From an uncultured Candidatus Saccharibacteria bacterium (GTDB lineage Bacteria; Patescibacteriota; Minisyncoccia; Phycocordibacterales; UBA918), in contig CAYGTP010000002.1 of assembly GCA_964352875.1 (NCBI GenBank), positions 4,244 through 68,243 of the forward strand: a DNA stretch of 64,000 bases, written 5' to 3'. The notes beneath the pieces were generated by a model. That model did no database searches. It was not told where the DNA came from and saw only the letters and a list, made by a program, of their open reading frames with translations. The position numbers were made by a program, and so were the translations under genes. Shown here piece after piece: positions 10,125-48,898 of this stretch. How positions within the stretch are numbered: the first letter of the stretch is position 1; the number at the start of each line of letters is the position of its first letter.

Positions 10125-11132
10125 ATGCGTTTATTTCTCATTACATTACTCATCCTTGCAAGCATCACGCCAGGGGTGATTAGTGCGTACTCAGTGAGCC
10201 CGCTACTCATTGATCGCGAGACGGAAGGTCGCGATATTATTAAGCAAACTATCACGCTGTCAAATCCGTCTAATAGCCCAGCTAGAATTTATGCCTCAGT
10301 CCATGAAGTGGCACTTGATGAAGGAGGCACTATTAAAGAATTTATTCCGCCTTCAGAGGTAGACAATAAAACTGCTATTACCAGTTGGATAGAAATTACT
10401 CGTGGTCGGATAGTTCTCGAGCCAGGTGAAGTGAGGGAAATCCCCGTGACTATCCGCATGAATCCTAATGCAGCACCAGGGCAGTATCACGGGTTGATTG
10501 GGTTTGGAACTGGTTCTAACCGCACAGATGCGGAAGCTCGGGTACTAGCCGGCACAGCACCAGCGACTATTGTCAGGCTGTCGCTTAACGAAAAGCGAAC
10601 AGAATTTCTCAGGCTTAAAAATTTTATTATTAATAGATTTGTCACAGATGATACTGACGGTGCTATCTCGTACGAAATTGAAAACCCAGGTGAATCCCCA
10701 GTCACGCCAACTGGCGAAATAATTTTTTATGACAATCGTGGCAACGAAGTCGGTGCTACCGCAGTAAATCCTGAAGGGGTAGTCGTGGAGGCAGGGAAGT
10801 CTGCCGCCTTTACTAGCTCGGTTCCAGATAATCAGTCGCTCGGTCGTTACAAAGCTTTTTTGTCAGTTGAGTACGGTAAAAAACAACTCGCTTCAGTGCA
10901 TGACACAGCTTTCTTTTATATGATTCCATTTAAACAGCTTATAATGCTATTTGGACTATTTCTGCTGCTCGCTGTATTGTTAACGTGGTGGCTCCACCGC
11001 CGGATGTACCGCGCTCATGGAATAGCACATCCTGATCACGAAGTAGTGCCAATGTACATTCGGAGCGGTTCAGATGCCCCTAAATTTGATCATGATATCG
11101 ACCTTAAGAAAAAACCTGAAGAAAACAACTAG
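10125..11132 (+). CDS. DUF916/DUF3324-like (CscA-type) cell-surface protein with C-terminal TM anchor and basic tail
   Basis: Signal peptide; post-signal YSVSPLLIDRETEGRDIIKQTITLSNPSN pattern recalled from Gram-positive DUF916 proteins; C-terminal TM LIMLFGLFLLLAVLLTWWLHRRMYR. Confidence 0.5.
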   Translation: MRLFLITLLILASITPGVISAYSVSPLLIDRETEGRDIIKQTITLSNPSNSPARIYASVHEVALDEGGTIKEFIPPSEVDNKTAITSWIEITRGRIVLEPGEVREIPVTIRMNPNAAPGQYHGLIGFGTGSNRTDAEARVLAGTAPATIVRLSLNEKRTEFLRLKNFIINRFVTDDTDGAISYEIENPGESPVTPTGEIIFYDNRGNEVGATAVNPEGVVVEAGKSAAFTSSVPDNQSLGRYKAFLSVEYGKKQLASVHDTAFFYMIPFKQLIMLFGLFLLLAVLLTWWLHRRMYRAHGIAHPDHEVVPMYIRSGSDAPKFDHDIDLKKKPEENN

Positions 11133-22852: not shown

Positions 22853-22916
22853 TCAACGGGCGCTACGGCGCCCGTTTCGACTTTTTATATTCTAAGTCTC
22901 GCGGTATAGTTAGCGC

Positions 22917-24935
22917 GTGAATTTTAAAATTTCAACTGAAAAAACTCCAGCCGGGGACCAGCCAAAAGCGATTGAGACACTAGTGGCAGGGTACGAAGCG
23001 GGTATGCAGCATCAGACTTTGATGGGGGTGACTGGCTCTGGTAAAACGTTTACCGCCGCCAACGTTATTCAGCATGTGCAGAAACCAACGCTCGTGATCG
23101 CCCACAACAAAACGCTTGCTGCCCAGCTCGCCCAAGAATACCGGGATTTCTTCCCTGATAACGCTGTGCATTATTTTGTTTCGTACTACGACTACTACCA
23201 ACCAGAAGCCTACGTATCAGTCTCTGACACCTATATTGAAAAGGAAGCGCAGATCAATGAAGAAATTGACCGACTACGCCATGCGTCGACCCAAGCGCTG
23301 TTGACCCGTGATGATGTGATTATCGTAGCGTCTGTATCGTGCATTTATGGATTGGGTTCGCCGGAACAATACGAAAAAGTGCACAAGAAAATTGAACGAG
23401 GATTTACCTCATCTCGAGCCGAGATGCTCCGTTTCTTGGTCAATATGTACTTTGAACGTACAAATGCCGATTTGACCCCAGGGCACTTTAGGGCCGTCGG
23501 TAATACGGTGGAAATTATGCCGACCAATGAACGGGTGATTTACCGGCTTGGCTTTTCTGGTGATAGCGTTAGCAGTATCACAAAGATTGATGGGGTATCT
23601 CGACAAATTATTGAAGAACCTGAGGTTTTCTATTTGTTTCCAGCCAAGCACTTTGTTACTCCAGAAGAGGAGCGCAAGCGAGCAATTGCTGATATTCAAG
23701 CCGAGCTTGATGAGCAGTTGAAGAAATTTAAGCAAGAAGGCAAGCTGCTTGAGGCTGAACGACTAAAGCGTCGCACCCAACATGACTTAGCGTTGATTCG
23801 TGAGATTGGTTTTTGCCAGGGGATAGAGAACTACTCACGGCATTTTGATGGACGAAAACCAGGCGAAGCGCCCTACACACTCTTATCATATTTCCCGCAC
23901 ACCGACGACGGTAAACCTGACTTCTTAACTATCATCGACGAATCACATGTTGCCATCCCACAAATTGGGGGGATGTATGCCGGTGACCGATCACGAAAAA
24001 ACAATTTAGTAGAATTTGGCTTTCGGCTTCCGTCAGCCGTTGATAACCGACCACTCAATTTTGAAGAATTTGAAGATCGGGTTGGGCAGCGTATCTACAC
24101 CTCAGCGACTCCGGGTAAGTATGAATTTGAGAGAGCGGATGGTAAGGTTGGCCAAATCGTCGAACAAATCATCCGCCCAACTGGTCTTATTGATCCCGAA
24201 ATAGACGTTCGTCCGATTGTACAAACTGGTGATTATCCAGGACAAGTTAAAGACTTTATTACAGAAGCTGAAAAGATAATCAACGGTGGAGCCCGCGTCT
24301 TAGTAACAACGTTAACTAAAAAAATGGCTGAAGACTTAGCCGATTTCTTGGAAGAACGTCAGATAAAATCCAAATATATACACAGTGATGTGCAAACCTT
24401 GGAACGGATTGAGATTTTAACTGATTTTCGCAAAGGAAACTTTGACTGCTTGGTTGGAGTAAACTTGTTGCGAGAAGGACTCGATTTACCAGAGGTAGAG
24501 TTGGTGGCTATTATGGACGCTGACAAAGAAGGATTTTTACGGAGTGAAACATCATTAATACAGACTATTGGCCGGGCAGCTCGTAACGTGAATGGGCGAG
24601 TGGTCCTCTATGCGGACGAAATGACCGGTTCACTTGAGAAGGCAATTGGTGAAACCAACAGACGCCGAGCGATTCAGCTGGCTTATAATATAAAACATGG
24701 CATTACACCAAAGACGATAGCTAAAGAAATCAGATCGATTGCTGATCAGATGCGGACAGAGCATCAGGAGACAGTACAAACCTTGCTTGTTGTGGACAAA
24801 GAGCTCTACAAAAAGAATCCTCAAAAAGTTATGAAAGAAAAACGTGCTGCCATGGCCGAAGCAGTAAAACTACTTGATTTTGAAACTGCCGCTATTCTTC
24901 GCGACGAAATTCGCGCACTAGAATCAATTAAATAG
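22917..24935 (+). CDS. uvrB: excinuclease ABC subunit B
   Basis: PAGDQPKAIETL, GVTGSGKT, helicase motifs and C-terminal UVR-like helix; GTG start. Confidence 0.9.
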   Translation: MNFKISTEKTPAGDQPKAIETLVAGYEAGMQHQTLMGVTGSGKTFTAANVIQHVQKPTLVIAHNKTLAAQLAQEYRDFFPDNAVHYFVSYYDYYQPEAYVSVSDTYIEKEAQINEEIDRLRHASTQALLTRDDVIIVASVSCIYGLGSPEQYEKVHKKIERGFTSSRAEMLRFLVNMYFERTNADLTPGHFRAVGNTVEIMPTNERVIYRLGFSGDSVSSITKIDGVSRQIIEEPEVFYLFPAKHFVTPEEERKRAIADIQAELDEQLKKFKQEGKLLEAERLKRRTQHDLALIREIGFCQGIENYSRHFDGRKPGEAPYTLLSYFPHTDDGKPDFLTIIDESHVAIPQIGGMYAGDRSRKNNLVEFGFRLPSAVDNRPLNFEEFEDRVGQRIYTSATPGKYEFERADGKVGQIVEQIIRPTGLIDPEIDVRPIVQTGDYPGQVKDFITEAEKIINGGARVLVTTLTKKMAEDLADFLEERQIKSKYIHSDVQTLERIEILTDFRKGNFDCLVGVNLLREGLDLPEVELVAIMDADKEGFLRSETSLIQTIGRAARNVNGRVVLYADEMTGSLEKAIGETNRRRAIQLAYNIKHGITPKTIAKEIRSIADQMRTEHQETVQTLLVVDKELYKKNPQKVMKEKRAAMAEAVKLLDFETAAILRDEIRALESIK

Positions 24936-25008: not shown

Positions 25009-26226
25009 ATGTTTGAAGCTGGAGTTGGAATTGCTGATGGAAGTGACGAATATGCAGTTGGGGTAAAAGCAGCCTCTGATGCAATGGCAAAATTGCAGGA
25101 AAAGCAAGTTGATGCAAAAGCTAATGTCGCTATTGTCTTTGCCTCGTCAAAATACAATCATAGTACAGTATTGTCTGGGATAGAGTCTGTGGTCGGCCCA
25201 GACACCAAGATTGTCGGCGCTAGTACAGCCGGCGAAATCACTCAAGCTGGACCATCGATACGTGAATCTGTAGTTGTGATGGTGTTGGCCTCTGATTCAG
25301 TGCAGTTTGCTAGCACCTATAGCGAAAATATTCATACTACTTCACATGAAGCTGGTATACATTTAGCTCAAGAAATTAAAACGGCATTACATGAACCACA
25401 ACTCATTACTATGTTTGCCGATGGTCTTCGCGGCAATGGTTCAGCTATTATTCGAGGTATTTTGGAAGTATGTGGGGACAACTTTCCAGTGGTGGGTGGT
25501 TCAGCTGGCGACGATGGAAAATTTGAAAAAACCTTCCAATTTCATGGTACTGATGTACGTTCCAACTCTGTGACCGGACTTGGATTTGCTGGCCCAGTAG
25601 ATTTTTCAGTGGGGGTCAATCACGGCTGGAGCGCGGTTGGGGCGGCTAGAACTGTTACTGACTCAGATGGTGCTACGGTCAAGACTATTGACGGTAAACC
25701 AGCGTTTGAACTATACAAAGATTATTTGGGAGATGAAGCTGATAATCTAAAGCAATATACACTCGGTGAAATTGCACTTTCCTACCCACTTGGGATTTTG
25801 GACGAAGCGTCCGGTGAAGTCTTATTGCGGGCACCTTTTGCCGTTGATGACAATGGCGCCATTGTATGCGGTGGGGAAGTGGCAGTAGGATCTAAGGTAC
25901 AGCTTATGATGGGAACTAAAGAAGATGCGATTGTAGCAGCTAAAAAAGCCGCGACGGTAGCCAAGGCAGGGTTTGTTGGCGACCATATCAGCGCCGCTTT
26001 AATCTTTAGTTGTCACGTTCGTAATACATTGTTTGCAAACAGTGATGCGGCCAAGGGCGAAGTTGATGCCATTAGCCAGGTTATTGGAGTAGACGTCCCA
26101 TTGATTGGCTTTTACACGTATGCTGAACAAGCACCGGTTGGAGGCACTGCTCACAACATAAAAAATTGCAATCCAGAATTTCACAACGAGACAGTGGTTG
26201 TGGTGTTGTTGGGAGAAACAAAATAA
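25009..26226 (+). CDS. FIST sensory domain protein (FIST_N + FIST_C)
   Basis: NVAIVFASSKY...IVGASTAGEI and C-terminal FIST_C-like segment; 3-nt gap to the downstream kinase. Confidence 0.65.
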   Translation: MFEAGVGIADGSDEYAVGVKAASDAMAKLQEKQVDAKANVAIVFASSKYNHSTVLSGIESVVGPDTKIVGASTAGEITQAGPSIRESVVVMVLASDSVQFASTYSENIHTTSHEAGIHLAQEIKTALHEPQLITMFADGLRGNGSAIIRGILEVCGDNFPVVGGSAGDDGKFEKTFQFHGTDVRSNSVTGLGFAGPVDFSVGVNHGWSAVGAARTVTDSDGATVKTIDGKPAFELYKDYLGDEADNLKQYTLGEIALSYPLGILDEASGEVLLRAPFAVDDNGAIVCGGEVAVGSKVQLMMGTKEDAIVAAKKAATVAKAGFVGDHISAALIFSCHVRNTLFANSDAAKGEVDAISQVIGVDVPLIGFYTYAEQAPVGGTAHNIKNCNPEFHNETVVVVLLGETK

Positions 26227-26229
26227 CCC

Positions 26230-27057
26230 ATGAGCGAAACCGAGACATTACAAAACCGGATTGCAGAGCTGGAAGCCGAACTCAAGAGTATGGATAAAAG
26301 CGCTCAAATGCTCGTACGCCGCGATCTTGAACTACGTCGAGCCAATGGTCGCTTGCAAGCACTCGACAGTGCCAAATCAGAATTTGTCTCAATCGCAGCC
26401 CACCAGATGCGCACGCCACTTTCGGCTATAAAATGGTCACAACAAATGCTCTATGACGAAGAGCTTGGACCGTTGACGGTAGAACAAAAACAAATGGTTT
26501 CGCAAACTAGTAAAAGCGCGACTAGACTCATACGTCTAGTGAACAACTTGTTAGACGCAGATCATTTAGAAGTAGGTCGGGCTCAATACGATACAACAGA
26601 AGTTGACCTGATTGTGGTATTGCAAGAAATTATCACTGATTTGCAATCGGCAGCTCAAGAAAAAAAGATTGATATAAAATTATTAGTAGATCGAGAAATC
26701 CCGTTACTGCATTTTAATCGGGAACGACTAAAGGACATTTTCTTTAATTTAGTCGATAATGCTATTAAATATACTCCGGCTACTGGTACTATAACTATTC
26801 AAGCTACTCCAGTTAGTGGGGTGACGGTTATGGTGTCAGATACAGGCATTGGTGTACCTGAGATTCACAAGGAGAAGCTGTTCAGTCGCTTTGCTCGAGC
26901 CGAAAACGCCAAGCGGGTAGATGCTGATGGTTCCGGGTTGGGACTATACATTGTTAAGAAGATTATTGAAGCTAACGACGGTACTATCACTTGTGATAGT
27001 ACCGAAGGAGTTGGTACGCGGTTTACTATCAATCTGCCAAACGTTGTGCAGAAATGA
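26230..27057 (+). CDS. cytoplasmic sensor histidine kinase (coiled coil, HisKA, HATPase_c)
   Basis: H-box SIAAHQMRTPL; N, G1 and G2 boxes (DNAIKYT, DTGIGV, GSGLGL); no TM. Confidence 0.8.
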   Translation: MSETETLQNRIAELEAELKSMDKSAQMLVRRDLELRRANGRLQALDSAKSEFVSIAAHQMRTPLSAIKWSQQMLYDEELGPLTVEQKQMVSQTSKSATRLIRLVNNLLDADHLEVGRAQYDTTEVDLIVVLQEIITDLQSAAQEKKIDIKLLVDREIPLLHFNRERLKDIFFNLVDNAIKYTPATGTITIQATPVSGVTVMVSDTGIGVPEIHKEKLFSRFARAENAKRVDADGSGLGLYIVKKIIEANDGTITCDSTEGVGTRFTINLPNVVQK

Positions 27058-27094
27058 TTATTTTGCCTGCAAATACAGTATAATAATAAACAAT

Positions 27095-27913
27095 ATGTCA
27101 GGAAAAGTACTCGAAAAAAAGAAAATTGTATTGATAGAAGATAACTTGTTTTTGTCAGATATCATTACCAAAAAACTTGAGTATCACGGTGCAAAGATAA
27201 TCAGATTTTCAAATGGACTTGAAGGACTCGCAGGTATCAGAAAAGAGCAGCCAGATTTAGTGTTATTAGATATTGCAATGCCAGTAATGAATGGCTATGA
27301 AGTATTGCAAGTCATGTATGCAGAAAAACTCACAGAAAAAATTCCAGTGATTGTCATTTCTAATTCTGGTCAACCAGTTGAAATTGAACGGGTAAAACAA
27401 CTAGGTGTTCGTGACTATTTGGTAAAAGCTAATTTTGAACCGACGGAAGTTTTAGAAAAGGTATTTGCGGTCATGAATATTGAGTCTGGTGCAAAACCTG
27501 CTTTTGAAACCAACCACGAATCCCAATCAGGTGACAAAGTAGTAAAAGTGATGGTGGTAGAAGATGACCCGTTACTCCGTAACTTATTGTCAGTAAAACT
27601 ATCAAAATCAGGTTGTCCCCACATGTTTAGTAGCGACGGATCAGAGGCATTTTCAATGATTTCTCAATACCAACCAACGGTGATTGTGTTAGACATGATG
27701 CTCCCGGGTAAAACAGGACTAGAAATTCTAGCTGAACTCAAAGCTGATGCAGCTTTAAAAAATATTCCTGTGGTAATTTTTTCAAACAAAAGTGATGACG
27801 CGGACAAGATAAAAGCCAAAGAACTTGGAGCTGAACAGTATTATGTAAAAGCTATGACTGACCTAACCGAATTTGTGACTGAGCTGCGATCCATTGCACA
27901 GAGTACACAGTAA
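27095..27913 (+). CDS. tandem-receiver (REC-REC) response regulator without output domain
   Basis: Two CheY-like domains (IVLIEDN...LLDIAMPVMNG and VMVVEDDP...VLDMMLPGKTG). Confidence 0.8.
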   Translation: MSGKVLEKKKIVLIEDNLFLSDIITKKLEYHGAKIIRFSNGLEGLAGIRKEQPDLVLLDIAMPVMNGYEVLQVMYAEKLTEKIPVIVISNSGQPVEIERVKQLGVRDYLVKANFEPTEVLEKVFAVMNIESGAKPAFETNHESQSGDKVVKVMVVEDDPLLRNLLSVKLSKSGCPHMFSSDGSEAFSMISQYQPTVIVLDMMLPGKTGLEILAELKADAALKNIPVVIFSNKSDDADKIKAKELGAEQYYVKAMTDLTEFVTELRSIAQSTQ

Positions 27914-27962: not shown

Positions 27963-30710
27963 ATGCCGTCAAAGAAAGCGGAATCTAGCAAGATAGTACA
28001 TAAACCAAAGCGGACTAAACTCGCTGCTGCCAAAAAGACAGTCACACCAAAAGCAAAAGCGAAGGTAAAACCAGCTATTGTTCGTGTGCCAAAGCAGGTT
28101 GCCAAACCTAAAATCTCAAAAAAGATAGTCCCAGTTAAAAAATCTCTGACCAAAAAGTCTTTACCAGCGCCGACAGTCACTTTGACTAAGGTAGCGGAAC
28201 CTGTCTTGATTGCCGATAAACGTTTTAGCCTAGTGGCTTTGGCACCACTCAAGCCGATGCAAATAGCAATGTTTACCCGGGTCGCCGGTTTATTTTTTGT
28301 AATGCTCGGGGCCTTCTTTTCGTTGTACCACATGCCCTATGTGTTTGATGCGAACGTCCAAATGGCGCAAGTCAGTAGTTCTGTTACCACGACCACATCG
28401 CAGACAACCCCAACCAATTCACTAGGAGTGTCCGGAGAGTTTGTTGTTCCAACTGGTGAACTACATGGCGATGTTCGGCTTGAATACACTCACAATGAAG
28501 CGCAATCAGTAAAATTTTTAGCGTACCAAGTTTCTACTGATGAATTCATTACTCTTGGTACTGCTGAGCGAACCACTAACACTCGTTGGAGAAAAACTAT
28601 CAACACTGAACATTTAGACGATGGACAATATAAATTTATCGCGATAGTGACAGTAGCTGGCAACGCTTGGCAAGATCCATTGCAAATCACTCGCACCATT
28701 AAAAACACAATTCATATTATTCCTGACGTGTCCCTTACTGTAAAACAAAATGGGCAACTAGTTAGCTCACCAGTTACAGCTACATTAGACGACCAAGTGT
28801 CTTTGGTCTGGACGATTGAACCTGCAAGTGCAGAGTGTACTTTGGCGCGAGATGGTGACGGGTTTAAAACTATTAACGGCACGAACTCCTTTGCTATATC
28901 ACTGACTGATATTGATTCATCAGTATTTTCTGTTTTGTGTGTACATGAAACAGATGAAATTGAAAAACAAGTAGTCATTTCTGTAACGGATGCGTTAACA
29001 GAAGATTTGGAAGAGATTACTACGAATACGAACGACGTTGTAACCGAGACTCAATCTGTAAATGAAGCAGACAACACAGCCGACTCGACTAAAGAAACCG
29101 ACGCTGACAATGACGAGATTGATGAAGTTACAGCTGTCACAGTAGACATTGATGAAATTGACGTAGTCGTACCCACCGAAGTATCTGAAGAGGTAGACGA
29201 ATCAGAGCAACCGACCGAATCAACACCACTACTTAAAACTCCCGAGACCATCCAAACCCCAACCCCTACACCAGCAGAAATAAAGCCATCAGTTGTATTA
29301 GAATTACCAGAGCGAGATTTTTTGACTGACACCATTGAGATATCGATTGCAGTAGACGGAGCGCAGTTTATTGAATTATATGTACAGAGTGAACGTTCAG
29401 GTGAAGCTCGGTTTGTCGGACTAGCCAAAAAGCGCAGTGATGGTACCTGGCGAGCTAGACTTGAAACAGTCAATATTCCAAATGGTCGGTACGCTCTCTA
29501 TGCTAAAGTAAAAAATATTTATGGTTTATATCAAAGCTCATCGGTCAACATAGCTATTCAAAATAAAAACGAAACCACACCAACACCAGCTCAAGTTGAA
29601 ACCTTTGGTCTGATTCAGACTGTCGGCTCTGACCTCAAAGAACTAGTAACGGACCCACCAGTCATCGATACCCTGGTTGCCAATCAGTTAAAAACCAGTG
29701 CACGTGACCAAGTTTCAGATGACTCTGAAACAAATATAATCAACGATGAAACAATTGCGGCAACTGAGCAAAATTTAGAAGAGCAGTTCCAAGCCCTCCG
29801 TCTTGCTATACGTAATAATGATCAAAATGCCATTCAAGCAATCAAACAGTCTGTACGAACCATTCAGAACGATATTATTTCACAGACCGCCAGCGCAGAC
29901 GACGAACAAACAGCGATAGCCGACAGTATAGAAAAGCGTATTGTTGAACGTGAGAAAGATATTGAGCGAAAAGAATTAATCATCCGTGATCGCGTCGGTG
30001 ACGCTGCGTTACTTGACTCTGACCAAGACGGAGTAACTGATTATGACGAAATAAATCTCTACCAAACCAACCCACTGGCGGCAGACTCTGACCTGGATGG
30101 AGTGATAGACAGTGCAGAAATTGAACGAGGCTTTAATCCTAACGATGCTTCACCAGAAGCGCTGGTTCGCTTTGAATCACCAAAAGAAGTCGGTGAAGTA
30201 CGAAAGGATATTCTTGAGATCACTACGTTGGCAACTATTGTAGACTCAGACAACACTGGTGCAGGAACTAGTGATGGGGTTGCTGCCCAAGCTATGATTT
30301 CAGGACGTGGACTACCAAACAGCTTTGTTACGGTGTATATCTTTAGTACACCGGTAGTAGTAACAGTAAAAACCGACAGCACTGGCGCCTGGTCATACAC
30401 CTTTGAGAAAGAGCTAGAAGATGGTACTCACGAAGTATATGTTGGTATTACTGATAACGCAGGTAGAATTGTGGCAAAAAGTGAACCATTAGCGTTTGTA
30501 AAGCAAGCTCAAGCCTTTTCACCAGTAAATGCCGCCTCAGTTGAAACTCCAACTATCACTACAGCAACACCAGAGCGTTCACTGAGCTCGACTTCGTCTA
30601 TGCTCTTAATTGCTTCAATTTCAGTAGTAGCGATTGGTTTAGTGTTGATATTACTTGGACTTTACATTGACCGACGTGAACGAAGCGAAATAACTCCGGT
30701 GACTGCATGA
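27963..30710 (+). CDS. bitopic cell-surface protein with K/P/A-rich cytoplasmic N-tail, large extracellular region with thrombospondin-type-3-like Ca-binding repeats, and C-terminal TM
   Basis: N-terminal KPKRTKLAAAKKTVTPKAKAKVKPAIV... (histone H1-like); TM VAGLFFVMLGAFFSLY; DSDQDGVTDYDE and DSDLDGVIDSAE; C-terminal TM LLIASISVVAIGLVLILLGLYI. Confidence 0.65.
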   Translation: MPSKKAESSKIVHKPKRTKLAAAKKTVTPKAKAKVKPAIVRVPKQVAKPKISKKIVPVKKSLTKKSLPAPTVTLTKVAEPVLIADKRFSLVALAPLKPMQIAMFTRVAGLFFVMLGAFFSLYHMPYVFDANVQMAQVSSSVTTTTSQTTPTNSLGVSGEFVVPTGELHGDVRLEYTHNEAQSVKFLAYQVSTDEFITLGTAERTTNTRWRKTINTEHLDDGQYKFIAIVTVAGNAWQDPLQITRTIKNTIHIIPDVSLTVKQNGQLVSSPVTATLDDQVSLVWTIEPASAECTLARDGDGFKTINGTNSFAISLTDIDSSVFSVLCVHETDEIEKQVVISVTDALTEDLEEITTNTNDVVTETQSVNEADNTADSTKETDADNDEIDEVTAVTVDIDEIDVVVPTEVSEEVDESEQPTESTPLLKTPETIQTPTPTPAEIKPSVVLELPERDFLTDTIEISIAVDGAQFIELYVQSERSGEARFVGLAKKRSDGTWRARLETVNIPNGRYALYAKVKNIYGLYQSSSVNIAIQNKNETTPTPAQVETFGLIQTVGSDLKELVTDPPVIDTLVANQLKTSARDQVSDDSETNIINDETIAATEQNLEEQFQALRLAIRNNDQNAIQAIKQSVRTIQNDIISQTASADDEQTAIADSIEKRIVEREKDIERKELIIRDRVGDAALLDSDQDGVTDYDEINLYQTNPLAADSDLDGVIDSAEIERGFNPNDASPEALVRFESPKEVGEVRKDILEITTLATIVDSDNTGAGTSDGVAAQAMISGRGLPNSFVTVYIFSTPVVVTVKTDSTGAWSYTFEKELEDGTHEVYVGITDNAGRIVAKSEPLAFVKQAQAFSPVNAASVETPTITTATPERSLSSTSSMLLIASISVVAIGLVLILLGLYIDRRERSEITPVTA

Positions 30711-32050
30711 TTTCAACGGCACTGTATGCGTTTGAACGAAGTGTTAAATATTTGCGGCATCACCCGCAAGTCATTTTCATTCTATTATTGATTATCGTAA
30801 TGCCAGTGCTATTTCTTTATAGCGGGCAACAGTTTCTTGATGCTGGCAGATCAAATCAAGAACGGCTTCAGAAAGATCGCATCGGACTTCTCCATGATTC
30901 ATTTGTTGCTGTATTGAGTGCAACTAACGTTGATACAGCTATTTTGCAGTCCCAAATTACAGAACTAGTAAAAAACAATCCTGATTTTATCCAGTTTCAA
31001 GTTGTAATACACAAACCTGGCGAAGTCCGTGTTATAGCGGCCGCGAATCAAGAAATGGTTGGTACAATTGAGACCAATGTCGAACCATATCGTTTTTCTA
31101 CCATTAATCTAGACGAATCGTTTATTGTAGAAGTACAACGAAGTAAAGAGCACTACTGGCAAGCCTTCCGTAGTGTCCGACACACTGACGATAACCTCTA
31201 TACCATTTTTACAGAACAGTCATTAACACAAATCGATGCTGTATTTTCAGCCCGGGAACGCGAAGCATATTACTCATTAGTCGTTATTTACTTATTCATT
31301 TTTGGCTTGGCTTTCTGGCATATCAAACTTACTGATTACCGCTATCTCTATCAAAAAGTGGCTAAAGCTAACGAAATGAAAGACCTCTTTACCAACATGA
31401 TTGCTCACGAATTGAGGGCACCGATTACAGCGATTCGAGGTTATGCGAGTCTACTAGAAGAAGACACTACCCTCGCTGGTACCCAGCGCGAACAAGCCGG
31501 TAAAATTTCCAAGTCTAGTATCCGATTGTTAACGGTGATAAATGATTTTTTAGATATTGCTCGTATGCAATCTGGTAAATTGTCAGTCGAAAAAAAGCCA
31601 ACCAACATATCAGAAGTGGTCCAAGCAGTTTGCAGTGAGCTCAGTATCCAAGCTAAAGAAAAAAATATAGCTCTTATTCATTCTGACACTGATATAGCTC
31701 ACATCATCAACACTGACGGCAAGCGGCTTCATCAAGTTTTAATTAATATAGTAAATAACTCGATAAAATATACTGAATCAGGCACTATCGAAGTGGCTTT
31801 GTTTGAAAACGACACCAAGCTCGAAATCAGAGTTAAAGACACTGGTATGGGAATCAACGCCGACGAACAGAAAAATCTTTTTGTACCATTTCATCGAGTT
31901 GAGGGTGAGGAAACCAAAACTATCACTGGGACCGGACTGGGTATGTGGATTACTAAACAGTTGGTTGACTTGTTGGGAGCTTCGATTGGAGTCGAATCTA
32001 TAAAAAGCGTTGGTACCCACGTTGTTATTACGTTTCCTAAGCACTCATAA
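30707..32050 (+). CDS. membrane sensor histidine kinase (2 TM with extracytoplasmic sensor domain)
   Basis: TMs VIFILLLIIVMPVLFLY and LVVIYLFIFGLAFW; H-box MIAHELRAPI; HATPase boxes; ATGA overlap with the upstream gene. Confidence 0.8.
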   Translation: MISTALYAFERSVKYLRHHPQVIFILLLIIVMPVLFLYSGQQFLDAGRSNQERLQKDRIGLLHDSFVAVLSATNVDTAILQSQITELVKNNPDFIQFQVVIHKPGEVRVIAAANQEMVGTIETNVEPYRFSTINLDESFIVEVQRSKEHYWQAFRSVRHTDDNLYTIFTEQSLTQIDAVFSAREREAYYSLVVIYLFIFGLAFWHIKLTDYRYLYQKVAKANEMKDLFTNMIAHELRAPITAIRGYASLLEEDTTLAGTQREQAGKISKSSIRLLTVINDFLDIARMQSGKLSVEKKPTNISEVVQAVCSELSIQAKEKNIALIHSDTDIAHIINTDGKRLHQVLINIVNNSIKYTESGTIEVALFENDTKLEIRVKDTGMGINADEQKNLFVPFHRVEGEETKTITGTGLGMWITKQLVDLLGASIGVESIKSVGTHVVITFPKHS

Positions 32051-32125
32051 GTCGAGCTGCAGAATTTATCTAGCCGTGTATAATAGGTGTATACAACCTT
32101 CACCGACACGTGGAGGCGTTATGCT

Positions 32126-34756
32126 ATGGCCAAATCAAAACCTAATAAAACCAAGTGGGAGAGCCCTGATTCAGATAAAATCGTAGTGCGTGGAGCCCGT
32201 ACCCACAATCTTAAAAACATCGATGTAGAAATGCCACGTGGCAAAATGATTGCCATCACCGGACCCTCTGGTTCGGGTAAATCGTCCTTGGCTTTTGATA
32301 CTATTTTCGCTGAAGGTCAACGCCGCTATGTTGAGTCACTATCACCCTATGCGAGGCAGTTTCTGAATAAAATGCAGAAACCAGACGTTGATGAAATCTC
32401 TGGCTTATCACCAGCGATTTCGATTGATCAAAAGTCAGCTAGCCGCAATCCTCGCTCAACGGTAGCGACTATTACCGAGATTTACGACTACCTACGAATT
32501 CTGTATGCGCGAGTCGGTCAGCCGTACTGTTTAGATGTTGATGTGCCAATTGAAAAGTTATCGCAAGATGAAATTTTAAACATCATTCTAAAATCAATCG
32601 AAGACAAAGAAGTAAAGTCTGCCCAAAAGAAAGAGCAAGTAATGGGAATCGAGCTATCCAAAGGTCGGGTGAGTATCTTTTCACCAGTGGTAGTGGGGCG
32701 AAAAGGTGAATACTACCAGATGCTGTATGACCTACTCGCCAAAGGGTACGAAACGGTAAAAATCGACGGCGAAATCAAACAATTACGCGAAAAAATTGAA
32801 CTCAAAAAAACTAAACGACATGATATTGATGTGTTGGTGGACGAAATATACGTAAGTGAATTTACTGATGACCCTAAAAACTCACGGGAACGACTTTCCG
32901 AAGCAGTTGAGTTAGCCCTAGCTGAATCAAATGGACTGGTAAAAATCATGAGTCCTGACAAAACCGAACGTACGCTGTCAGCAAAATTCATTTGCCCGGT
33001 CGACGGCTCATCGTTTCCCGAGGTTGAACCACGATTGTTTTCATTTAACTCACCCTACGGTGCCTGTCCTGAATGTAACGGTCTCGGTATGATTGGGATT
33101 TTCCATACCGATGAATGTCCGTCGTGCCATGGTGCGCGCCTACGACCCGAGGCGCTTCGGGTATACCTGGGTGGAGATGGTAAAAAAGACTTAGGGGTAA
33201 ATATTGTAGCGTTTACTGGTATGACTGTTAAGGCTGCGAGCGAATTTATTGCCGGTTTAAAGCTATCCAAGCAACAGCAAGAAATCGCCTGGCCGGCCCT
33301 ACGTGAAATCATCGAACGCTTAGAATTTATGAACAACGTTGGGATCGAGTATCTTACGCTTGATCGCCGTGCCAATACCTTGTCGGGTGGAGAAGCTCAG
33401 CGGATTCGCTTGGCGTCGCAACTTGGCTCAGGCTTGGTGGGCGCACTCTACGTTCTAGATGAACCAACCATCGGGTTGCATCAGCGTGACAATGATTTAC
33501 TCATCAAGACATTAACTGATCTCCGAGACTTAGGAAACACCATTATTGTGGTTGAACACGATGAAGATACCATCTATGCAGCTGACTATTTAATCGATAT
33601 CGGTCCTGGGGCTGGGGTACATGGTGGGGAAGTGATTGTCGCTGATTACCTGGAAGGTCTTCTCACCGCCAAGAAAAACGATTCTGGTTCAGTCACGCTC
33701 GACTATCTGCGGGGTGACAAATCAATCAAAGTACCGGAACGTCGAACAGGAGAAAAAGGCTCTATTAAAATCCGAGGTGGTAAAGCTTTTAATATCAAAA
33801 ATCTTATCGTCGACATCCCACTCGGGCGCTTGATTACGGTGACTGGTGTATCCGGTTCTGGTAAATCCACGTTTATGTATGAGATTTTGTACAAAAACCT
33901 ACAACGCAAATTAGACAAGAAATATCGTCGGGCCGAAGTTGTTAATTGCACGAGTTTTACCGGTACGGAGTACCTTGGTCGCTCTGTACTGATTGACCAG
34001 TCACCAATCGGGCGCACCCCGCGCTCTAATCCTGCCACGTACACTGGTGCCTTTACGCATATTCGCGATCTCTTTGCTGCGAGCAGCGAAGCGCGGGCGC
34101 GGGGTTGGAAACCGGGACGATTCTCGTTTAATGTCAAAGGTGGTCGCTGTGAAGCCTGCCAGGGGAACGGCGTCATTGCTGTTGAAATGCACTTCTTGCC
34201 GACCGTGTTTGTGACTTGTGACGTCTGTGACGGCAAACGCTTCACCAAAGAAACGCTTGAAGTAACCTACAAACACCGCAATATTCATGAGGTGTTGCAT
34301 ATGACGATTGAAGATGCGCACAAATTTTTTAACGATGTGCCGGCCATAGAAGAACGACTAAAAACACTGCTTGATGTAGGGCTGGGCTATCTACAGCTTG
34401 GGCAGAGCGCTACAACGCTCTCTGGCGGGGAAGCCCAGCGCGTCAAAATTGCCTCTGAACTATACAAACCACACACCCAGAAAAGCATCTACCTATTGGA
34501 CGAACCAACCATCGGGTTGCACTACGAAGACGTCAAAAAGCTGATCGAAATCCTGCAACATCTCGTCGACAAAGGAAATACCGTGTTAGTAATTGAGCAC
34601 AACCTTGATTTGATCAAATCATCTGATTACATTTTAGATATTGGTCCCGAAGGTGGTGCCGGTGGAGGACAACTGATCGCCAAAGGAACGCCAGAGGAAG
34701 TGGCAGAAAACCCCAAATCATTTACCGGTCAATATCTCAAGAAGCATCTCAAGTAA
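32126..34756 (+). CDS. uvrA: excinuclease ABC subunit A
   Basis: Two ABC modules ([19 protein letters not shown]), Zn-finger CxxC pairs, LSGGEAQR signatures; start at MAKSKP with GGAGG 9 nt upstream. Confidence 0.9.
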
Positions 34757-34757
34757 C

Positions 34758-35387
34758 ATGTCATCGAACACATTTGTCAGTCTTGTTCTCGCGATGGCGC
34801 TGGTGGTAGTAGTGTCTAATGTCTTGGTGCAATTTTTGTTCGGTGATTGGTTGACCTGGGCAGCCTTTACGTATCCAATTGCTTTTCTTATTACTGATCT
34901 AGCCAATCGACTCCTAGGACCGGCAGCGGCTCGAAAGATTGTTTTCTACGGCTTTATCGTGGGAGTACTATGTTCACTGTTGGCTAGTCAGCTCGAAACT
35001 GCCGATGGGGTGCCGTATACTACGTTGCGTATTGCACTTGGTTCTGGTTTAGCATTCTTGATTGCGCAACTCACCGATGTGTATGTCTTTTCAAGACTGC
35101 GCCACGCGAGTTGGTGGAAGGCACCAGCCCTCTCTTCAGTTGCCGGTTCGGTCATTGATACAGCAATTTTCTTTACCGTGGCATTCTCGGCGGCGTTTAT
35201 ATTTCTTGAACCAACCAACGATGTCTCATGGGCAACCGAACTAATCCCACTGCTTGGCGTGGGGCCAGTGGTACCACTGTGGGTGAGTCTGGCAACTGCT
35301 GACTTCGGAGTGAAATTACTCTTGGTGGCATTAGCTCTGCTACCGTTTAAATTACTCGTCTCCCATTTTTCTCGGTCCAATGACTAA
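34758..35387 (+). CDS. queuosine-precursor transporter (YhhQ/DUF165 family)
   Basis: FTYPIAFLITDLANRLLGPAAARK matches the YhhQ signature region; 6 TM. Confidence 0.65.
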   Translation: MSSNTFVSLVLAMALVVVVSNVLVQFLFGDWLTWAAFTYPIAFLITDLANRLLGPAAARKIVFYGFIVGVLCSLLASQLETADGVPYTTLRIALGSGLAFLIAQLTDVYVFSRLRHASWWKAPALSSVAGSVIDTAIFFTVAFSAAFIFLEPTNDVSWATELIPLLGVGPVVPLWVSLATADFGVKLLLVALALLPFKLLVSHFSRSND

Positions 35388-36615
35388 GACTGCGTTAATA
35401 AAAAAGAAGTTACCTGATACGCCTGGAGTGTATTTTTTTCTTGGGTCAAAAAAAGAGATTTTATACATTGGTAAAGCCACCAGTCTCCGCAATCGGGTCC
35501 GGAGCTATTTTACTGATGACATCAAAGAAAAACGATCAGAATTAATCGAGCAAATGGTCACTGAGGCAAAAACCATTGAAGTTACTGAAACCGATAGTGT
35601 ACTAGAGGCCCTGATTCTAGAAACAAACTTAATCCGCACGCACAAACCTCGCTACAATACTCGCAGCAAAGACGACAAAAGTTACAACCATCTTATTATT
35701 ACCAACGAAGCATTTCCGCGCGTGTTGGTCGTCCGAGGCAAGGACATGACTGAGCAATTTGAGGCGTCAGAAATCAAGTACCACTTTGGCCCGTTCCCGA
35801 GCAGCATGCTGTTTCGAGAAGCACTAAAAATCATCCGTAAATTATTTAAATTTTACGATACGGCAGTACCAATTGGCCAAGAAAAATCCAAGCTGGCAAA
35901 AGGGAGCATCAACTTCAACCGGCAAATCGGTCTGTATCCCGAACAAACATCAAAAAAAGAGTACCTGAAAACCATTCGTCACATACGGCTATTTTTCCAA
36001 GGTAAGAAACAGCAAATCATTGCAGAATTACGAGCCGAAATGATGCAGCTTGCAGCTGAGGAAGCCTTTGAAGCTGCCAACCAGATCAAACGGCGAATCT
36101 TTGCCCTCGAGCACATTCAAGATATTGCCTTAATCAAAGACGACGCTCGAATTTATCGAGATGACAAAAATATTAGAATCGAAGCCTATGATGTAGCGCA
36201 CATCAGTGGCACGGATATGGTCGGAGTGATGACGGTGGTTGAGGGTGGTGAGCCCAAGCACGCTGAGTACCGCAAGTTTAAAATTAAGAGCGTTACCGGA
36301 AGCAACGATCCTGCAGCGCTCCAAGAAGTGTTAGACCGGCGGCTCGCTCATCCGGAATGGCCCTACCCGCAAGTAATTGTCGTTGACGGGAGTACCGCTC
36401 AAAAAAATGTAGCCGAGCACACATTGCGGAAGTGTGGAGCAATGATTCCGGTGGTGGCGGTGGTAAAAGACGATAAGCACCGCCCGCTGCGCATCATTGC
36501 AGCCAAAAAACTCAAAACCCAATACGAAACTGCTATACTACTAGCCAATGCCGAGGCACATCGGTTTGCAGTGGCCTATCACCGAGCCAAGCGCAGCAAG
36601 CGAATGAGACTTTAG
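35380..36615 (+). CDS. uvrC: excinuclease ABC subunit C, short form lacking C-terminal (HhH)2
   Basis: GIY-YIG (PGVYFFLGSKKEILYIGKATSLRNR), UVR domain, RNase H-like endonuclease domain (RIEAYDVAHISGTDMVGVMTV); ends at 411 aa. Confidence 0.8.
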   Translation: MTKTALIKKKLPDTPGVYFFLGSKKEILYIGKATSLRNRVRSYFTDDIKEKRSELIEQMVTEAKTIEVTETDSVLEALILETNLIRTHKPRYNTRSKDDKSYNHLIITNEAFPRVLVVRGKDMTEQFEASEIKYHFGPFPSSMLFREALKIIRKLFKFYDTAVPIGQEKSKLAKGSINFNRQIGLYPEQTSKKEYLKTIRHIRLFFQGKKQQIIAELRAEMMQLAAEEAFEAANQIKRRIFALEHIQDIALIKDDARIYRDDKNIRIEAYDVAHISGTDMVGVMTVVEGGEPKHAEYRKFKIKSVTGSNDPAALQEVLDRRLAHPEWPYPQVIVVDGSTAQKNVAEHTLRKCGAMIPVVAVVKDDKHRPLRIIAAKKLKTQYETAILLANAEAHRFAVAYHRAKRSKRMRL

Positions 36616-42660: not shown

Positions 42661-44643
42661 ATGGCAGTTCTCCAGATGCAAAAACTCCGCTTGGTCATAC
42701 ATCAAAACGATGTCAATCGTCTGTTAGAACTAGTGCAACCAAGCGCTGCCGTTGAATTTATTGATACTAATACTGATGATTTGGTTGAGATAGCGGTAAT
42801 ATTTACGCACCAGGAGTTGCTTACCCACGTGCAGCAAGCCATTTTGTTTTTAGGAAATCATGAAGTAGCACCGGGGATGTGGCATACATTGCGAAATGGC
42901 TCTTTTACTACTCTTTCCGAAGCTGACATCAAAACCGCAGCTACTGATACTACGGTTATAAAGTCGTTATTAGAGCAAACTGATACACTGCAAGCCAACT
43001 ATACGGCAGCACAAAATGAAGTCAAAACCCTTACGGATCAAATTGCTGCCCTGACGGCCTGGCAAAGGCTGCCCTTTGCAGTCTCGGATTGCCAAACCAG
43101 CACTACCACCACATATCTCTTGGAATACGTAGGGAAGAAGCCATCGGTAGTAAGTCAGATTGTACAAACCCTTACTGAACGAAGCCAAGAAGCCGAACTA
43201 GCAGTGGTAGCGACGGCAATCAGTGATACACAATTGACCCTGACGGTACATACTGAAACGGTAACGATGTCACAAGTTACTGCACTGCTGGACGACCTTG
43301 AAATAACTATTGCAGCCGACCTCCCAGGTACTGAATTACCTACGATTGAATTACAACGGACACAAGAACGACTGACGAATGCTACCGTATCCTTGGCGGC
43401 TATCTCAGCTCAGTGTGCAAATTTTGCTAACGCTCACCTCCGTGAGCTTAGAATTTGTGGGGAAGTACTCAACTGGGAGCGCGATCGTGTTAGTGCTTTA
43501 GCGACTGCGAAAGCCACTGCCGAAACTACCGTGATGGATGCCTGGGTAGTAGCCGACTATCGCCCGACTTTAGAAAGAGTTATTGCAAATAATCATATAG
43601 CCGCAGTCATTCAAGATCTAGAACTAGAAGCCGATGAAGAACCACCAGTTGAGATTCGTAATTCTGAATTTTTCAAGCCGTTTGAAGTGATTACTAGACT
43701 CTATGGTATGCCGGGTTATAAAGACTTAGATCCAACTGCGTTCTTGGCAGGTTTCTTCTTTCTATTTTTCGGTTTGTCACTTACGGATGTAGGGTACGGT
43801 GCCTTTTTGATGATTGTATCAGTTGGAGTATTAACATTGTTTGTCGTCCCACCAATTGTCCGAACTTTTACAAAACTGTTATTTTTGATGGGCCTTGGTT
43901 CTTTTTTGGTTGGGTTACTCTTTGGTGGATATCTTGGAATTGCACCAGAATCACTACCAGCTGTGCTTCGAGCCATCCAAGTATTTGATCCAATTGGTAA
44001 CCCGTTGCCAGTCTTTTATCTCGCGCTTGGTCTCGGCGTCTTCCAAGTAATGGTTGGTATGGTACTTAAAATATACAGTGAGGCACGTAATAACCGTCTG
44101 GTATCAGGGTTACTGGATCAAGGTCCATGGTTGTTCGTATTCTGTCTGGGTATTGCGTATATTGGGGTAGTGACTGGATACCTCAGTGGTATCACTGAAT
44201 CGCAACTGATCAACCTTATGTACGTCGGGGTAGTACTCATCGTGGTTGCCAGTGGCCGGCACGGAAAGACGTTTTTTGAAATGATCCAAAAAAGTCTCCT
44301 CAGCCTTTACGATAGTATCGGATATTTTTCAGACATCCTTTCGTACTCTAGACTCTTAGCACTTGGATTAGCCACTACTGCACTAGCTTTTGCAGTTAAC
44401 CTTATTGCTGAAATTGTCAGTGACTCAGTGCCATATCTGGGGCCAGTGCTTGCAATCGTTGTGCTCGTTATCGGCCACCTTTTCACCCTGGCCGTGAACA
44501 CACTAGGAGCATTTATTCACAGCGCTCGACTTCAATTTGTAGAGTTTTTTGGCAAGTTCATTAGTGGAACTGGCCGAGAATTCAAACCGCTGGCTAGGTC
44601 CTATCGCTACATCGCAGCCAAGGACGAGTCGTCATCGGCTTGA
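42661..44643 (+). CDS. ntpI: V/A-type ATPase subunit I (a subunit)
   Basis: 660 aa, hydrophilic N-terminal half then multi-TM C-terminal half with the conserved Arg-containing helix region. Confidence 0.8.
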   Translation: MAVLQMQKLRLVIHQNDVNRLLELVQPSAAVEFIDTNTDDLVEIAVIFTHQELLTHVQQAILFLGNHEVAPGMWHTLRNGSFTTLSEADIKTAATDTTVIKSLLEQTDTLQANYTAAQNEVKTLTDQIAALTAWQRLPFAVSDCQTSTTTTYLLEYVGKKPSVVSQIVQTLTERSQEAELAVVATAISDTQLTLTVHTETVTMSQVTALLDDLEITIAADLPGTELPTIELQRTQERLTNATVSLAAISAQCANFANAHLRELRICGEVLNWERDRVSALATAKATAETTVMDAWVVADYRPTLERVIANNHIAAVIQDLELEADEEPPVEIRNSEFFKPFEVITRLYGMPGYKDLDPTAFLAGFFFLFFGLSLTDVGYGAFLMIVSVGVLTLFVVPPIVRTFTKLLFLMGLGSFLVGLLFGGYLGIAPESLPAVLRAIQVFDPIGNPLPVFYLALGLGVFQVMVGMVLKIYSEARNNRLVSGLLDQGPWLFVFCLGIAYIGVVTGYLSGITESQLINLMYVGVVLIVVASGRHGKTFFEMIQKSLLSLYDSIGYFSDILSYSRLLALGLATTALAFAVNLIAEIVSDSVPYLGPVLAIVVLVIGHLFTLAVNTLGAFIHSARLQFVEFFGKFISGTGREFKPLARSYRYIAAKDESSSA

Positions 44644-44672
44644 AGCGGAAATTAACAGTATTATTACACTAA

Positions 44673-45164
<492 letters not shown>

Positions 45165-45166
45165 TC

Positions 45167-45742
45167 ATGAGTACTAACCCTCTCATTACTAAAATCAATA
45201 CTGATGCTAAAGCCAAGGCTGACGCAGTTTTGGTAGAGGCTAAGCAAACAGTCGGTCAGATCGAACAGGCGATGGCAACAGCAGTAGCCGACCTCGAATC
45301 AGTCGCTAAGGACCGTTTAGCAAAACGCATGAAGCAAGCTGAATTGGTAGCGCTAGCCAAAGCAACTCAGGCCGGAAAGTTGGCTTTGCAGCAAGCCAAA
45401 CGATCATATCTAGACGCACTGTTTGCTTCAGTGTATACCGAACTTAGTGAATTATCAGACACTGACTACATAGCACTTGTAACCAGTATTGCTGCTAATG
45501 TGCTGCCAGCAGACTTGCAGACAGTGACCGTAGCTTCCTACCCAAGTAACCGACAAGCTCTCACTGAATCTCTACTTAAGACATTACATATTACTGCTGT
45601 AACTATGCAAGTAGATGATTCTCTTGATGCTGGCATGATACTTGAAACAGCTGACGGAGTGTATGACATTACACTCAATCGCGTATTTAGCGAGCGCCGA
45701 ACTGATTTAGAAATCAAAATTGCCGCATCGCTCAACGCATAA
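45167..45742 (+). CDS. ntpE: V/A-type ATPase subunit E
   Basis: Helical N-terminus then globular C-terminus; operon position; start chosen after the ntpK stop. Confidence 0.65.
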   Translation: MSTNPLITKINTDAKAKADAVLVEAKQTVGQIEQAMATAVADLESVAKDRLAKRMKQAELVALAKATQAGKLALQQAKRSYLDALFASVYTELSELSDTDYIALVTSIAANVLPADLQTVTVASYPSNRQALTESLLKTLHITAVTMQVDDSLDAGMILETADGVYDITLNRVFSERRTDLEIKIAASLNA

Positions 45743-45749
45743 TCTCTGT

Positions 45750-46730: not shown

Positions 46731-47064
46731 CCAATACAAAATTGCCATCATTGGTCCCAATGAAACTGTCTCTGGCTTTCGTGCGCTTGGAGTAGATGCA
46801 CTTGATGCAAGAACCGGTAGTGAAGCAATGGAACAACTGCGACAGATCAAAATCAACCGTGACAATGGCGACGGTCCGCACTATGCCGTCGTCTGCATTA
46901 TAGAAGACTTACTCACTGACGTAGATAGCAGTGAATACAGCAAGATTATATCTGGCCCACTACCAGCTGTGATTTCTTTACCCGGTCCACAAGGTAGCCA
47001 GGGTGTCGCACTGGCGCGTTTGCGTCGGCTCGCAGAACAAGCCGTTGGCTCCGCCATTATTTAA
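46720..47064 (+). CDS. ntpG: V/A-type ATPase subunit F
   Basis: KIAIIGPNETVSGFRALGV matches the subunit F N-terminus; overlaps the previous stop. Confidence 0.7.
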   Translation: MTTNQYKIAIIGPNETVSGFRALGVDALDARTGSEAMEQLRQIKINRDNGDGPHYAVVCIIEDLLTDVDSSEYSKIISGPLPAVISLPGPQGSQGVALARLRRLAEQAVGSAII

Positions 47065-47102
47065 ATTTAAAAACGATTATTACTACCAGTAATTATAAAA
47101 GT

Positions 47103-48893: not shown

Positions 48894-48898
48894 TTCAT

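Follow-up and report, generated by a model that had tools for sequence, protein, structure and literature searches.

NosP is a stand-alone FIST protein that binds heme and nitric oxide (NO) and controls the histidine kinase encoded next to it (PMC12570481; PMC8846402; PMC11237717). Systems of NosP, a kinase (NahK or NosK) and a response regulator (NarR or NosR) have been described from Pseudomonas aeruginosa, Legionella pneumophila (the lpg0279 operon) and Burkholderia pseudomallei (BPSS1646-1648) and, as NosP-VpsS, from Vibrio cholerae. In Legionella, nosP, nahK, and narR form an operon (PMC11237717). NosK of B. pseudomallei consists of the dimerization and histidine phosphotransfer (DHp) and catalytic ATP-binding (CA) domains only, with no sensory domain, and NosP binds NosK, with an NO-dependent change in NosK autophosphorylation (PMC12570481). 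Here, we describe a three-gene signaling locus from an uncultured Candidatus Saccharibacteria bacterium, a member of the Patescibacteria (candidate phyla radiation). It lies in a 64,000-nt stretch of contig CAYGTP010000002.1 (positions 4,244 to 68,243; assembly GCA_964352875.1), hereafter the window, and encodes a FIST protein, a soluble histidine kinase, and a response regulator made of two receiver domains and no output domain (REC-REC).

We read this locus as a NosP-like three-component module of Patescibacteria, in which a sensor-less kinase is controlled by an accessory sensor and acts on two receivers joined by a tether, and assign this reading a probability of roughly 0.7. As in NosP systems, a stand-alone protein with FIST and FIST_C is encoded beside a sensor-less kinase, with a response regulator in the cluster (PMC12570481, PMC11237717, PMC8846402), and the NosP kinase of B. 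pseudomallei is composed of DHp and CA only, exactly as the kinase of the window. A preliminary description of the window had presented FIST domains as almost uncharacterized experimentally and the locus as an unusual complete circuit. The former statement is out of date, NosP FISTs having been studied experimentally (PMC12570481; PMC8846402; PMC11237717), and the latter was abandoned, since this architecture is already known from NosP/NahK (NosK) systems, where FIST proteins control adjacent sensor-less kinases; the circuit is better regarded as a variant of the NosP kind. A limited literature search found no paper on FIST in Patescibacteria.

Conservation of the gene trio

The Pfam domain matches of the three proteins are far beyond chance. 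The FIST protein matched both FIST (PF08495; residues 40-230, E = 6.9e-45, 153.7 bits versus a cut-off of 23.2) and FIST_C (PF10442; residues 232-376, E = 3.1e-32, 111.9 bits versus a cut-off of 28.5). HisKA (residues 48-113) and HATPase_c (residues 164-271) are the only domains of the kinase; the regulator matches Response_reg in two places (whole-protein value, 1.7e-41) and lacks an output domain. None of the three proteins reaches 1.6 in any 19-residue Kyte-Doolittle window, and all are therefore predicted to be soluble. In the kinase, residues 28-46 follow a conserved a/d heptad pattern that is continuous with the DHp helix. The short same-frame spacer between the FIST and kinase genes suggests translational coupling. 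The regulator gene begins 37 nt after the kinase stop codon; although its longest open reading frame (ORF) opens at 26921, inside the kinase gene, its start was placed at 27095 because this Met1 is invariant in 37 orthologs.

In a scan of one genome per species, at least 551 genomes were found to encode a FIST relative. We analyzed the best 80 loci, nearly all of them from Patescibacteria, by calling ORFs and searching these with the window proteins. A kinase and a fused REC-REC were found near the FIST gene in 45 of the 80 loci, a kinase and two single-receiver genes in 8, a kinase and one receiver in 9, and a kinase only in 5. Four loci had a REC-REC at a contig that ended before a possible kinase, and nine, several of them at contig ends, had neither kinase nor receiver. 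Altogether, a kinase is present in 67 of the 80 loci, and 53 of 80 combine it with either the fused REC-REC or two single receivers. Addition of 80 metagenome loci raised the total to 82 for the fused form and to 16 for the form with two single receivers. The kinase is located downstream of FIST in 122 of 152 unique loci, with a gap of at most 60 nt in 84 (median of those 84, 3 nt). Gene order varies, with REC-REC upstream of FIST in some loci, yet the linkage persists. These data support the preliminary description in its account of a FIST_N/FIST_C protein encoded 3 nt before a kinase that lacks transmembrane (TM) segments and has a coiled-coil N-terminus, of a regulator of two receivers only, encoded 37 nt further on, and of the three genes as one signaling module; both FIST models match its FIST gene above their gathering scores, and FIST co-occurs with kinase and receivers across genomes.

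It might be argued that the adjacency is incidental and that the three genes do not work together, given that neither terminators nor promoters provide evidence for an operon and that the region from uvrB to uvrA is co-directional anyway. However, the trio is kept across many lineages of Patescibacteria despite variable neighborhoods, and the linkage stays where the gene order shifts, with a spacing of 3 nt between FIST and kinase in the window. We consider incidental adjacency effectively refuted by the comparative data, and its probability close to nil.

Unbiased clustering of all neighboring genes in the 80 loci singled out kinases and receivers as the sole general neighbor families and found no conserved effector. 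Apart from these, 14 of the 80 loci have the FIST module flanked by uvrB and uvrA, and no other family exceeds 10; we read this recurrence as inherited gene order, not as function. Nor did the clustering reveal a conserved receptor-type gene near the module, CheA not having been searched for specifically. Judged from these neighborhoods, the conserved unit comprises FIST, the kinase, and two receivers, with no effector gene travelling along. REC-GGDEF partners were found only in two relatives from Omnitrophota (L074, L079).

Some of the partner kinases are long and membrane-bound and include Cache and HAMP domains; in these cases, a solute-binding-protein gene lies between FIST and kinase. Genes of the Peripla_BP_6, ABC_sub_bind, or SBP_bac_1 families or a small Cache-like gene occupy this position in seven loci (L003, L034, L054, L057, L069, L071, and L072). 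Such kinases would receive accessory inputs from both outside and inside the cell.

Pairing of FIST with signaling enzymes also occurs in unrelated lineages. In Sulfurovum, FIST and kinase are fused in one polypeptide, and stand-alone FIST genes lie directly upstream of kinase genes in Nostoc, Calothrix, Microvirga, and Azospirillum. Stand-alone FIST genes are likewise found directly upstream of an adenylate/guanylate cyclase gene in Aliiroseovarius and of a gene for a short soluble methyl-accepting chemotaxis-type protein in Treponema (L008, L177). FIST may thus serve as a detachable sensor for several output enzymes.

The FIST protein and its HQ-type kinase

Among 1.84 billion representative proteins, FIST matches numbered 6272 at E <= 1e-3, 3503 at E <= 1e-10, and 539 at E <= 1e-30. 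The closest homologs are all stand-alone proteins of about 400 amino acids, and those with a named source come from Patescibacteria, Paceibacterota, Kaiserbacteria, and Zambryskibacteria. By these matches, the window protein belongs to a large FIST clade almost confined to Patescibacteria. Three proteins with 30-34% identity to it (P0241, P0251, and P0365) include giants of up to 2378 amino acids with three or four tandem FIST + FIST_C units and a fusion of a Ser/Thr protein kinase with FIST.

Within the Patescibacteria clade, T73, E76, D138, D168, H205, R274, R338, E373, and the H392-N-E-T motif are invariant, and C287 and C335 nearly so. Distant FISTs from cyanobacteria, proteobacteria, an archaeon, and other sources share an invariant C335 and nearly invariant D138, D168, R338, and E373; H392 is present in most of them. 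An AlphaFold2 model of the window protein, built on a 37-sequence alignment, reached a predicted local distance difference test (pLDDT) value of 90.9 and a predicted template modeling (pTM) score of 0.90. A search by sequence among solved structures yielded no match to the FIST protein, and no bacterial FIST or NosP structure was present among the PDB structures searched by sequence and with Foldseek. The best Foldseek match of the model was the FIST domain of FBXO22 (PDB 8ua3, 8s7e; E = 1.6e-12, TM-score 0.5-0.6), followed by cyanuric acid hydrolases, barbiturase, and chorismatases. These matches agree with the fold reported for FIST, which is built of three YjgF-like repeats (bioRxiv 10.1101/2024.06.03.594717). 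The FBXO22 structures are the only solved FIST structures and share these repeats with the window protein; in contrast to the latter, the FBXO22 FIST is eukaryotic and serves in substrate recognition, shares about 12% identity with the window FIST, and reportedly has no obvious ligand pocket (bioRxiv 10.1101/2024.06.03.594717).

Similarity to NosP raises the question of whether the window protein is a true heme-based NO (or heme) sensor like NosP, so that the module would report NO or host-derived heme. The NosP model (NCBIfam NF041558) matched along nearly the full length of the protein (residues 20-375, E = 4e-22), the residues retained across FISTs include the invariant C335 and R338 and the widely conserved H392, and the genes follow the operon logic of NosP systems (PMC12570481, PMC11237717). 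However, the NosP match scored 78.8 bits versus a curated cut-off of 450 bits, and other non-NosP FIST proteins tested against the same model score alike, at 63-103 bits (P0083, 72; P0026, 103). The invariant charged residues E76, D138, D168, R274, R338, E373, and E394 look more like a polar small-molecule site than like a pocket for heme. To our knowledge, Patescibacteria generally lack heme synthesis, a further point against a heme-based sensor. We therefore regard a NosP-like heme or NO sensor as unlikely, and the window protein is best described, from its scores, as a member of the FIST family that is not a NosP ortholog. In a tblastn search against plasmids, which returned 175 FIST records, none of the matches listed was annotated as NosP.

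Thermotoga HK853 is the closest solved structure to the kinase core (E = 4e-30). Across 68 partner kinases, H58 is conserved, as are the N, G1, F, and G2 boxes. The NahK/ErcS model (NCBIfam NF041832) gave 112.6 bits versus its cut-off of 400 bits, and the kinase is not a hybrid. Its H-box reads A-H58-Q59-M-R-T62-P, with Gln directly after the predicted phospho-His. In alignment with HK853, Q59 stands opposite E261 and T62 opposite T264; the kinase thus departs from the canonical HisKA motif H-E/D-x-x-T/N by replacement of the acidic residue with Gln, while the Thr is kept. The H-boxes of 123 unique FIST-adjacent kinases comprise 115 of HQxxT, 1 of HQxxS, and 5 of HExxT type, the last including a locus from Daviesbacteria and those of Omnitrophota in which REC-GGDEF is the partner. 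HQ did not hold as a general sign of FIST-coupled kinases: the partner kinases in Nostoc and Calothrix are of the HE type, as are the five from related loci. We consider the HQ H-box the most interesting unexplained feature of the module.

Willett and Kirby reported that the acidic residue at H+1 is needed only for kinase activity and the Thr or Asn at H+4 only for phosphatase activity (PMC3510030). CrdS E372A and HK853 E261A showed no autophosphorylation in vitro but retained phosphatase activity, and NtrB E140Q combined a kinase-negative phenotype with phosphatase competence (PMC3510030). This rule predicts weak kinase activity but phosphatase competence for the FIST-linked enzyme. It is tempting to speculate that it acts in a push-pull arrangement, mainly as a FIST-regulated receiver phosphatase with a kinase-weak HQxxT box, while the phosphoryl groups come from elsewhere. 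The donor could be the second kinase (HExxA) in the lineage of the window and an unlinked kinase or acetyl phosphate in others. Such an arrangement would fit the Gln at H+1 in 116 of the 123 FIST-adjacent kinases, the alignment of Q59 with HK853 E261, the loss of kinase but not phosphatase activity in the three mutants of the acidic position, and the Glu at H+1 and Ala or Ser at H+4 in the second kinase and its orthologs. On the other hand, the ATP-binding boxes of the FIST-linked kinase are all conserved, the long Cache kinases accompanied by solute-binding proteins are also of the HQ type, which would be odd for pure phosphatases, and no second kinase is found nearby in most loci. In addition, an unrelated FIST-kinase fusion has the H-box HQWRQPL, which hints that HQ is possibly a working natural variant. 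The intact ATP-binding boxes, the occurrence of HQ in sensor-bearing kinases, and this fusion argue against a simple kinase-dead interpretation, and we view a phosphatase-centered module as rather improbable. Equally doubtful is its extension, in which the trio would be among the few circuits retained in ultra-small, host-dependent Patescibacteria, with FIST responding to a signal in the cytoplasm, perhaps of host origin (such as heme, NO, or a metabolite), and switching an HQxxT phosphatase. The latter would drain two tethered receivers charged by another donor, which in this lineage would be the HExxA kinase coupled to the surface protein. If this push-pull arrangement were true, REC-REC would represent a new type of integrator, with two inputs, and the FIST-linked "kinase" would have to be regarded as a regulated phosphatase.

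Tandem receivers and neighboring genes

Both receivers of the regulator possess a full set of phospho-site residues (E15, D16, D59, S89, and K111 in REC1; E156, D157, D158, D200, S230, and K252 in REC2). Every one of these active-site positions is kept in 50 of 50 orthologs, conservative changes allowed, and both receivers look active; the acceptor Asp residues D59 and D200, on which the preliminary description depended, are in place. The AlphaFold2 model of the regulator combines a high pLDDT (91.2) with a pTM of only 0.54, and residues 134-145 of the linker fall below a pLDDT of 50. Confidently modeled domains, the low pTM, and the disordered linker suggest that the receivers are independent modules joined by a flexible tether, rather than packed against each other as in PleD. 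In line with independent modules, REC1-type and REC2-type receivers are encoded by separate genes in one related cluster (L001/L011). Several loci retain only a REC2-type gene after the kinase. All full-length REC-REC homologs are receiver-only proteins of 253-321 amino acids, and those named come from Kaiserbacteria, Parcubacteria, and Patescibacteria. RR468, the partner of HK853, is among the closest solved relatives of REC1 (E = 2.3e-15).

In both receivers, the residue directly after the conserved Ser/Thr is Asn, and that after the conserved Lys is Ala instead of Pro (27359-27364, 27782-27787). An unrelated 121-amino-acid receiver in locus L010 (3421-3786) has both features, so they were rejected as specific to the module; they look like a trait of the lineage instead.

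Covariation between kinase and receivers was analyzed by mutual information with average-product correction in 90 non-redundant trios. The top REC1 pairs link positions 17 and 21 of helix alpha1 with kinase positions 111 and 115. In block tests, which involve few sequences and no control for phylogeny, the top-5 score of REC1 ranked 11 of 123 and the mean of REC2 ranked 2 of 120.

Beyond the trio, just one two-component gene is present in the 64-kb window; it encodes a second, membrane-bound kinase, whose start overlaps the gene of a surface protein by 4 nt (ATGA). Its two orthologs share Glu at H+1 and have Ala or Ser at H+4, and by the rule of Willett and Kirby (PMC3510030) it is predicted to be kinase-competent and phosphatase-poor. 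The catalytic motifs of the two kinases in the window are thus complementary, HQxxT versus HExxA. Surface protein and second kinase may form a surface-sensing unit.

The preliminary description had observed that the second kinase has no cognate regulator nearby, which is correct for the whole window, and had proposed that REC-REC integrates both kinases, one receiver answering to the FIST-linked kinase and the other to the membrane kinase. In favor of this idea, the two kinases of the window, whose catalytic motifs are complementary, are matched by just two receiver domains, the only ones in 64 kb, all encoded in the same direction; the corresponding cluster of L001/L011 combines two kinases with two separate single-receiver genes. 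The DHp residues at +7, +11, and +12 after the His, which we take to be partner-specificity positions as in EnvZ-type kinases, differ between the kinases (S/W/S versus T/G/Y), and REC1 and REC2 differ in helix alpha1. Across genomes, however, integration of the two kinases found no support. Most of 166 related loci have REC-REC or two receivers, whereas the pair of surface protein and second kinase adjoins the FIST module in only two besides the window (L001, which equals L011, and L010). In L010, the order is a distinct 121-amino-acid receiver, surface protein, second kinase, FIST, kinase, and REC-REC; since the distinct receiver precedes the pair, the second kinase there has its own regulator, and the FIST-linked kinase is nonetheless followed by a complete REC-REC. 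Covariation of the FIST-linked kinase is weak for REC1 and REC2 alike. Thus, the double receiver is a property of the FIST module and not a result of two nearby kinases, and we judge integration of both kinases quite unlikely. Surface protein and second kinase are lineage-specific neighbors outside the conserved module.

The signaling cluster is embedded in a run of excision-repair genes; the order in the window is tgt, uvrB, the signaling cluster (FIST, kinase, REC-REC, surface protein, and second kinase), uvrA, a vitamin-uptake transporter gene, and uvrC (Table 1). Nearly every gene of the window lies on one strand, and the region from uvrB to uvrA is wholly co-directional. Elsewhere in this Patescibacteria fragment, an operon for a V/A-type ATPase (I, A, and B subunits) occupies positions 42661-50944, and a 2058-amino-acid ORF at 3933-10109 has no Pfam match, as is the case for its flanking ORFs at 2044-3912 and 10125-11132.

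Table 1. Genes of the signaling locus, their parts and motifs, and flanking genes, in positions of the window
Feature	Position	Strand	Remarks
FIST + FIST_C gene	25009..26226	+	405 aa; stand-alone, cytoplasmic; proposed accessory sensor
FIST motif H205-G-W	25621 onward	+	conserved family-wide
FIST motif C335-x-x-R338	26011-26022	+	conserved family-wide
FIST motif H392-N-E-T	26182 onward	+	conserved family-wide
Spacer CCC, FIST stop to kinase start	26227..26229	+	3 nt; TAA CCC ATG, same frame
Histidine kinase gene	26230..27057	+	275 aa; HisKA type, soluble, sensor-less
Kinase N-terminal coiled-coil helix	~26230-26367	+	
Kinase DHp	~26368-26583	+	
Kinase H58	26401-26403	+	predicted phospho-His; H-box 26401-26415
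Kinase CA	~26710-27045	+	
Tandem-receiver response regulator gene	27095..27913	+	272 aa; no output domain; start at ATG 27095
REC1	27122-27478	+	acceptor D59 at 27269-27271
Linker	27479-27544	+	
REC2	27545-27898	+	acceptor D200 at 27692-27694
Surface protein gene	27963..30710	+	915 aa; Big_13 Ig-like domain (Pfam, 1.4e-13); Lys-rich N-terminus; TM ~99-128, 873-905
Second kinase gene	30707..32050	+	447 aa; HisKA type (Pfam), membrane-bound; TM 16-44, 186-209
Second-kinase H-box H234-E-L-R-A238	31406-31420	+	
uvrB	22917-24935	co-directional	separated from uvrA by the signaling cluster
uvrA	32087-34756	co-directional	separated from uvrC by the vitamin-uptake transporter gene
uvrC	35380-36615	co-directional	

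Proposed mechanism and comparison with known systems

Starting from the domain identities, residue conservation, fold, and conserved gene trio, we infer the following binding and phosphotransfer steps. The soluble FIST protein, with its three YjgF-like repeats and its cluster of invariant polar residues, would serve as the input and probably bind a small ligand or cofactor in the cytoplasm. Probably co-produced with the kinase, it would bind the coiled-coil/DHp region and set the balance of activities around H58; gene linkage, natural FIST-kinase fusions, and the experiments on NosP all point to this coupling. The kinase would in turn determine whether D59, D200, or both are phosphorylated in the regulator. 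Because the receivers are predicted to be independent, tethered, and free of an output domain, the output would pass on by protein-protein contacts or further phosphotransfer.

Four points weigh against the NosP-like accessory-sensor module. With the score of the FIST protein far under the threshold of the NosP equivalog model, biochemical findings on NosP may not apply to it. Given the Gln at H+1, "kinase" may be the wrong label for the main activity of the partner enzyme. The covariation analysis of the 90 trios yielded weak signals for both REC1 and REC2 and did not single out the receiver contacted by the kinase. Finally, a promoter and terminator scan detected a clear strong terminator after tgt (22855-22876), but its signals inside the signaling cluster were at or near chance level and delimited no operon boundary.

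Patescibacteria have very small genomes with few regulators, and how they sense host or surroundings is largely obscure. As the trio is kept in hundreds of their species, it provides a good entry point to sensing in this group. Its soluble proteins form a test set for what non-NosP bacterial FIST domains sense, the natural HQxxT kinases a test case for distinguishing kinases from regulated phosphatases, and the regulator of two active receivers only a test case for the role of such proteins. Should the module prove merely a distant NosP-like system, the gain would mainly be a correction of annotation and the extension of a known architecture to a new phylum.

Several described systems share parts of this architecture. 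Two receivers in one polypeptide are also found in the REC-REC part of PleD, whose second receiver is a degenerate adaptor and which is fused to GGDEF, whereas both receivers of the window protein are intact and no fixed inter-domain packing is predicted for them. FrzZ of Myxococcus likewise carries two receivers but is fed by a CheA-type kinase, unlike the window regulator with its HisKA partner. FrzZ is an output-less regulator that acts via other proteins (PMC3441718). In the Legionella Hnox2-Lpg2458-Lpg2457 system, a soluble accessory sensor is combined with a kinase and a CheY-like output-less regulator (PMC11237717); here, the sensor fold is H-NOX, not FIST, and the regulator has one receiver in place of two.

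HK853-RR468 of Thermotoga maritima, a HisKA kinase with a single-domain regulator, is the cognate pair whose solved structures are closest to the kinase core and REC1 of the window. HK853 carries a sensor of its own and is anchored in the membrane. The pair differs further from the module in its canonical H-E-x-x-T motif (PMC3510030) and in the absence of a FIST partner and of a second receiver.

NosP systems remain the closest in organization. Compared with them, the window has a FIST protein below the NosP threshold, a non-hybrid kinase that is not of the NahK/ErcS family and carries HQxxT, and a host among the Patescibacteria, and its regulator consists of two receivers, without a GGDEF, EAL, or HD-GYP output acting on cyclic di-GMP (c-di-GMP) and without a hybrid-receiver phosphorelay. 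The module would work as a NosP-type accessory-sensor system, yet it departs from that type in its NosP and NahK scores, the c-di-GMP output, and the HisKA motif. The combination of an accessory sensor with a kinase is known, and what appears to be new is the Patescibacteria-wide trio of FIST, HQ-type kinase, and REC-REC.

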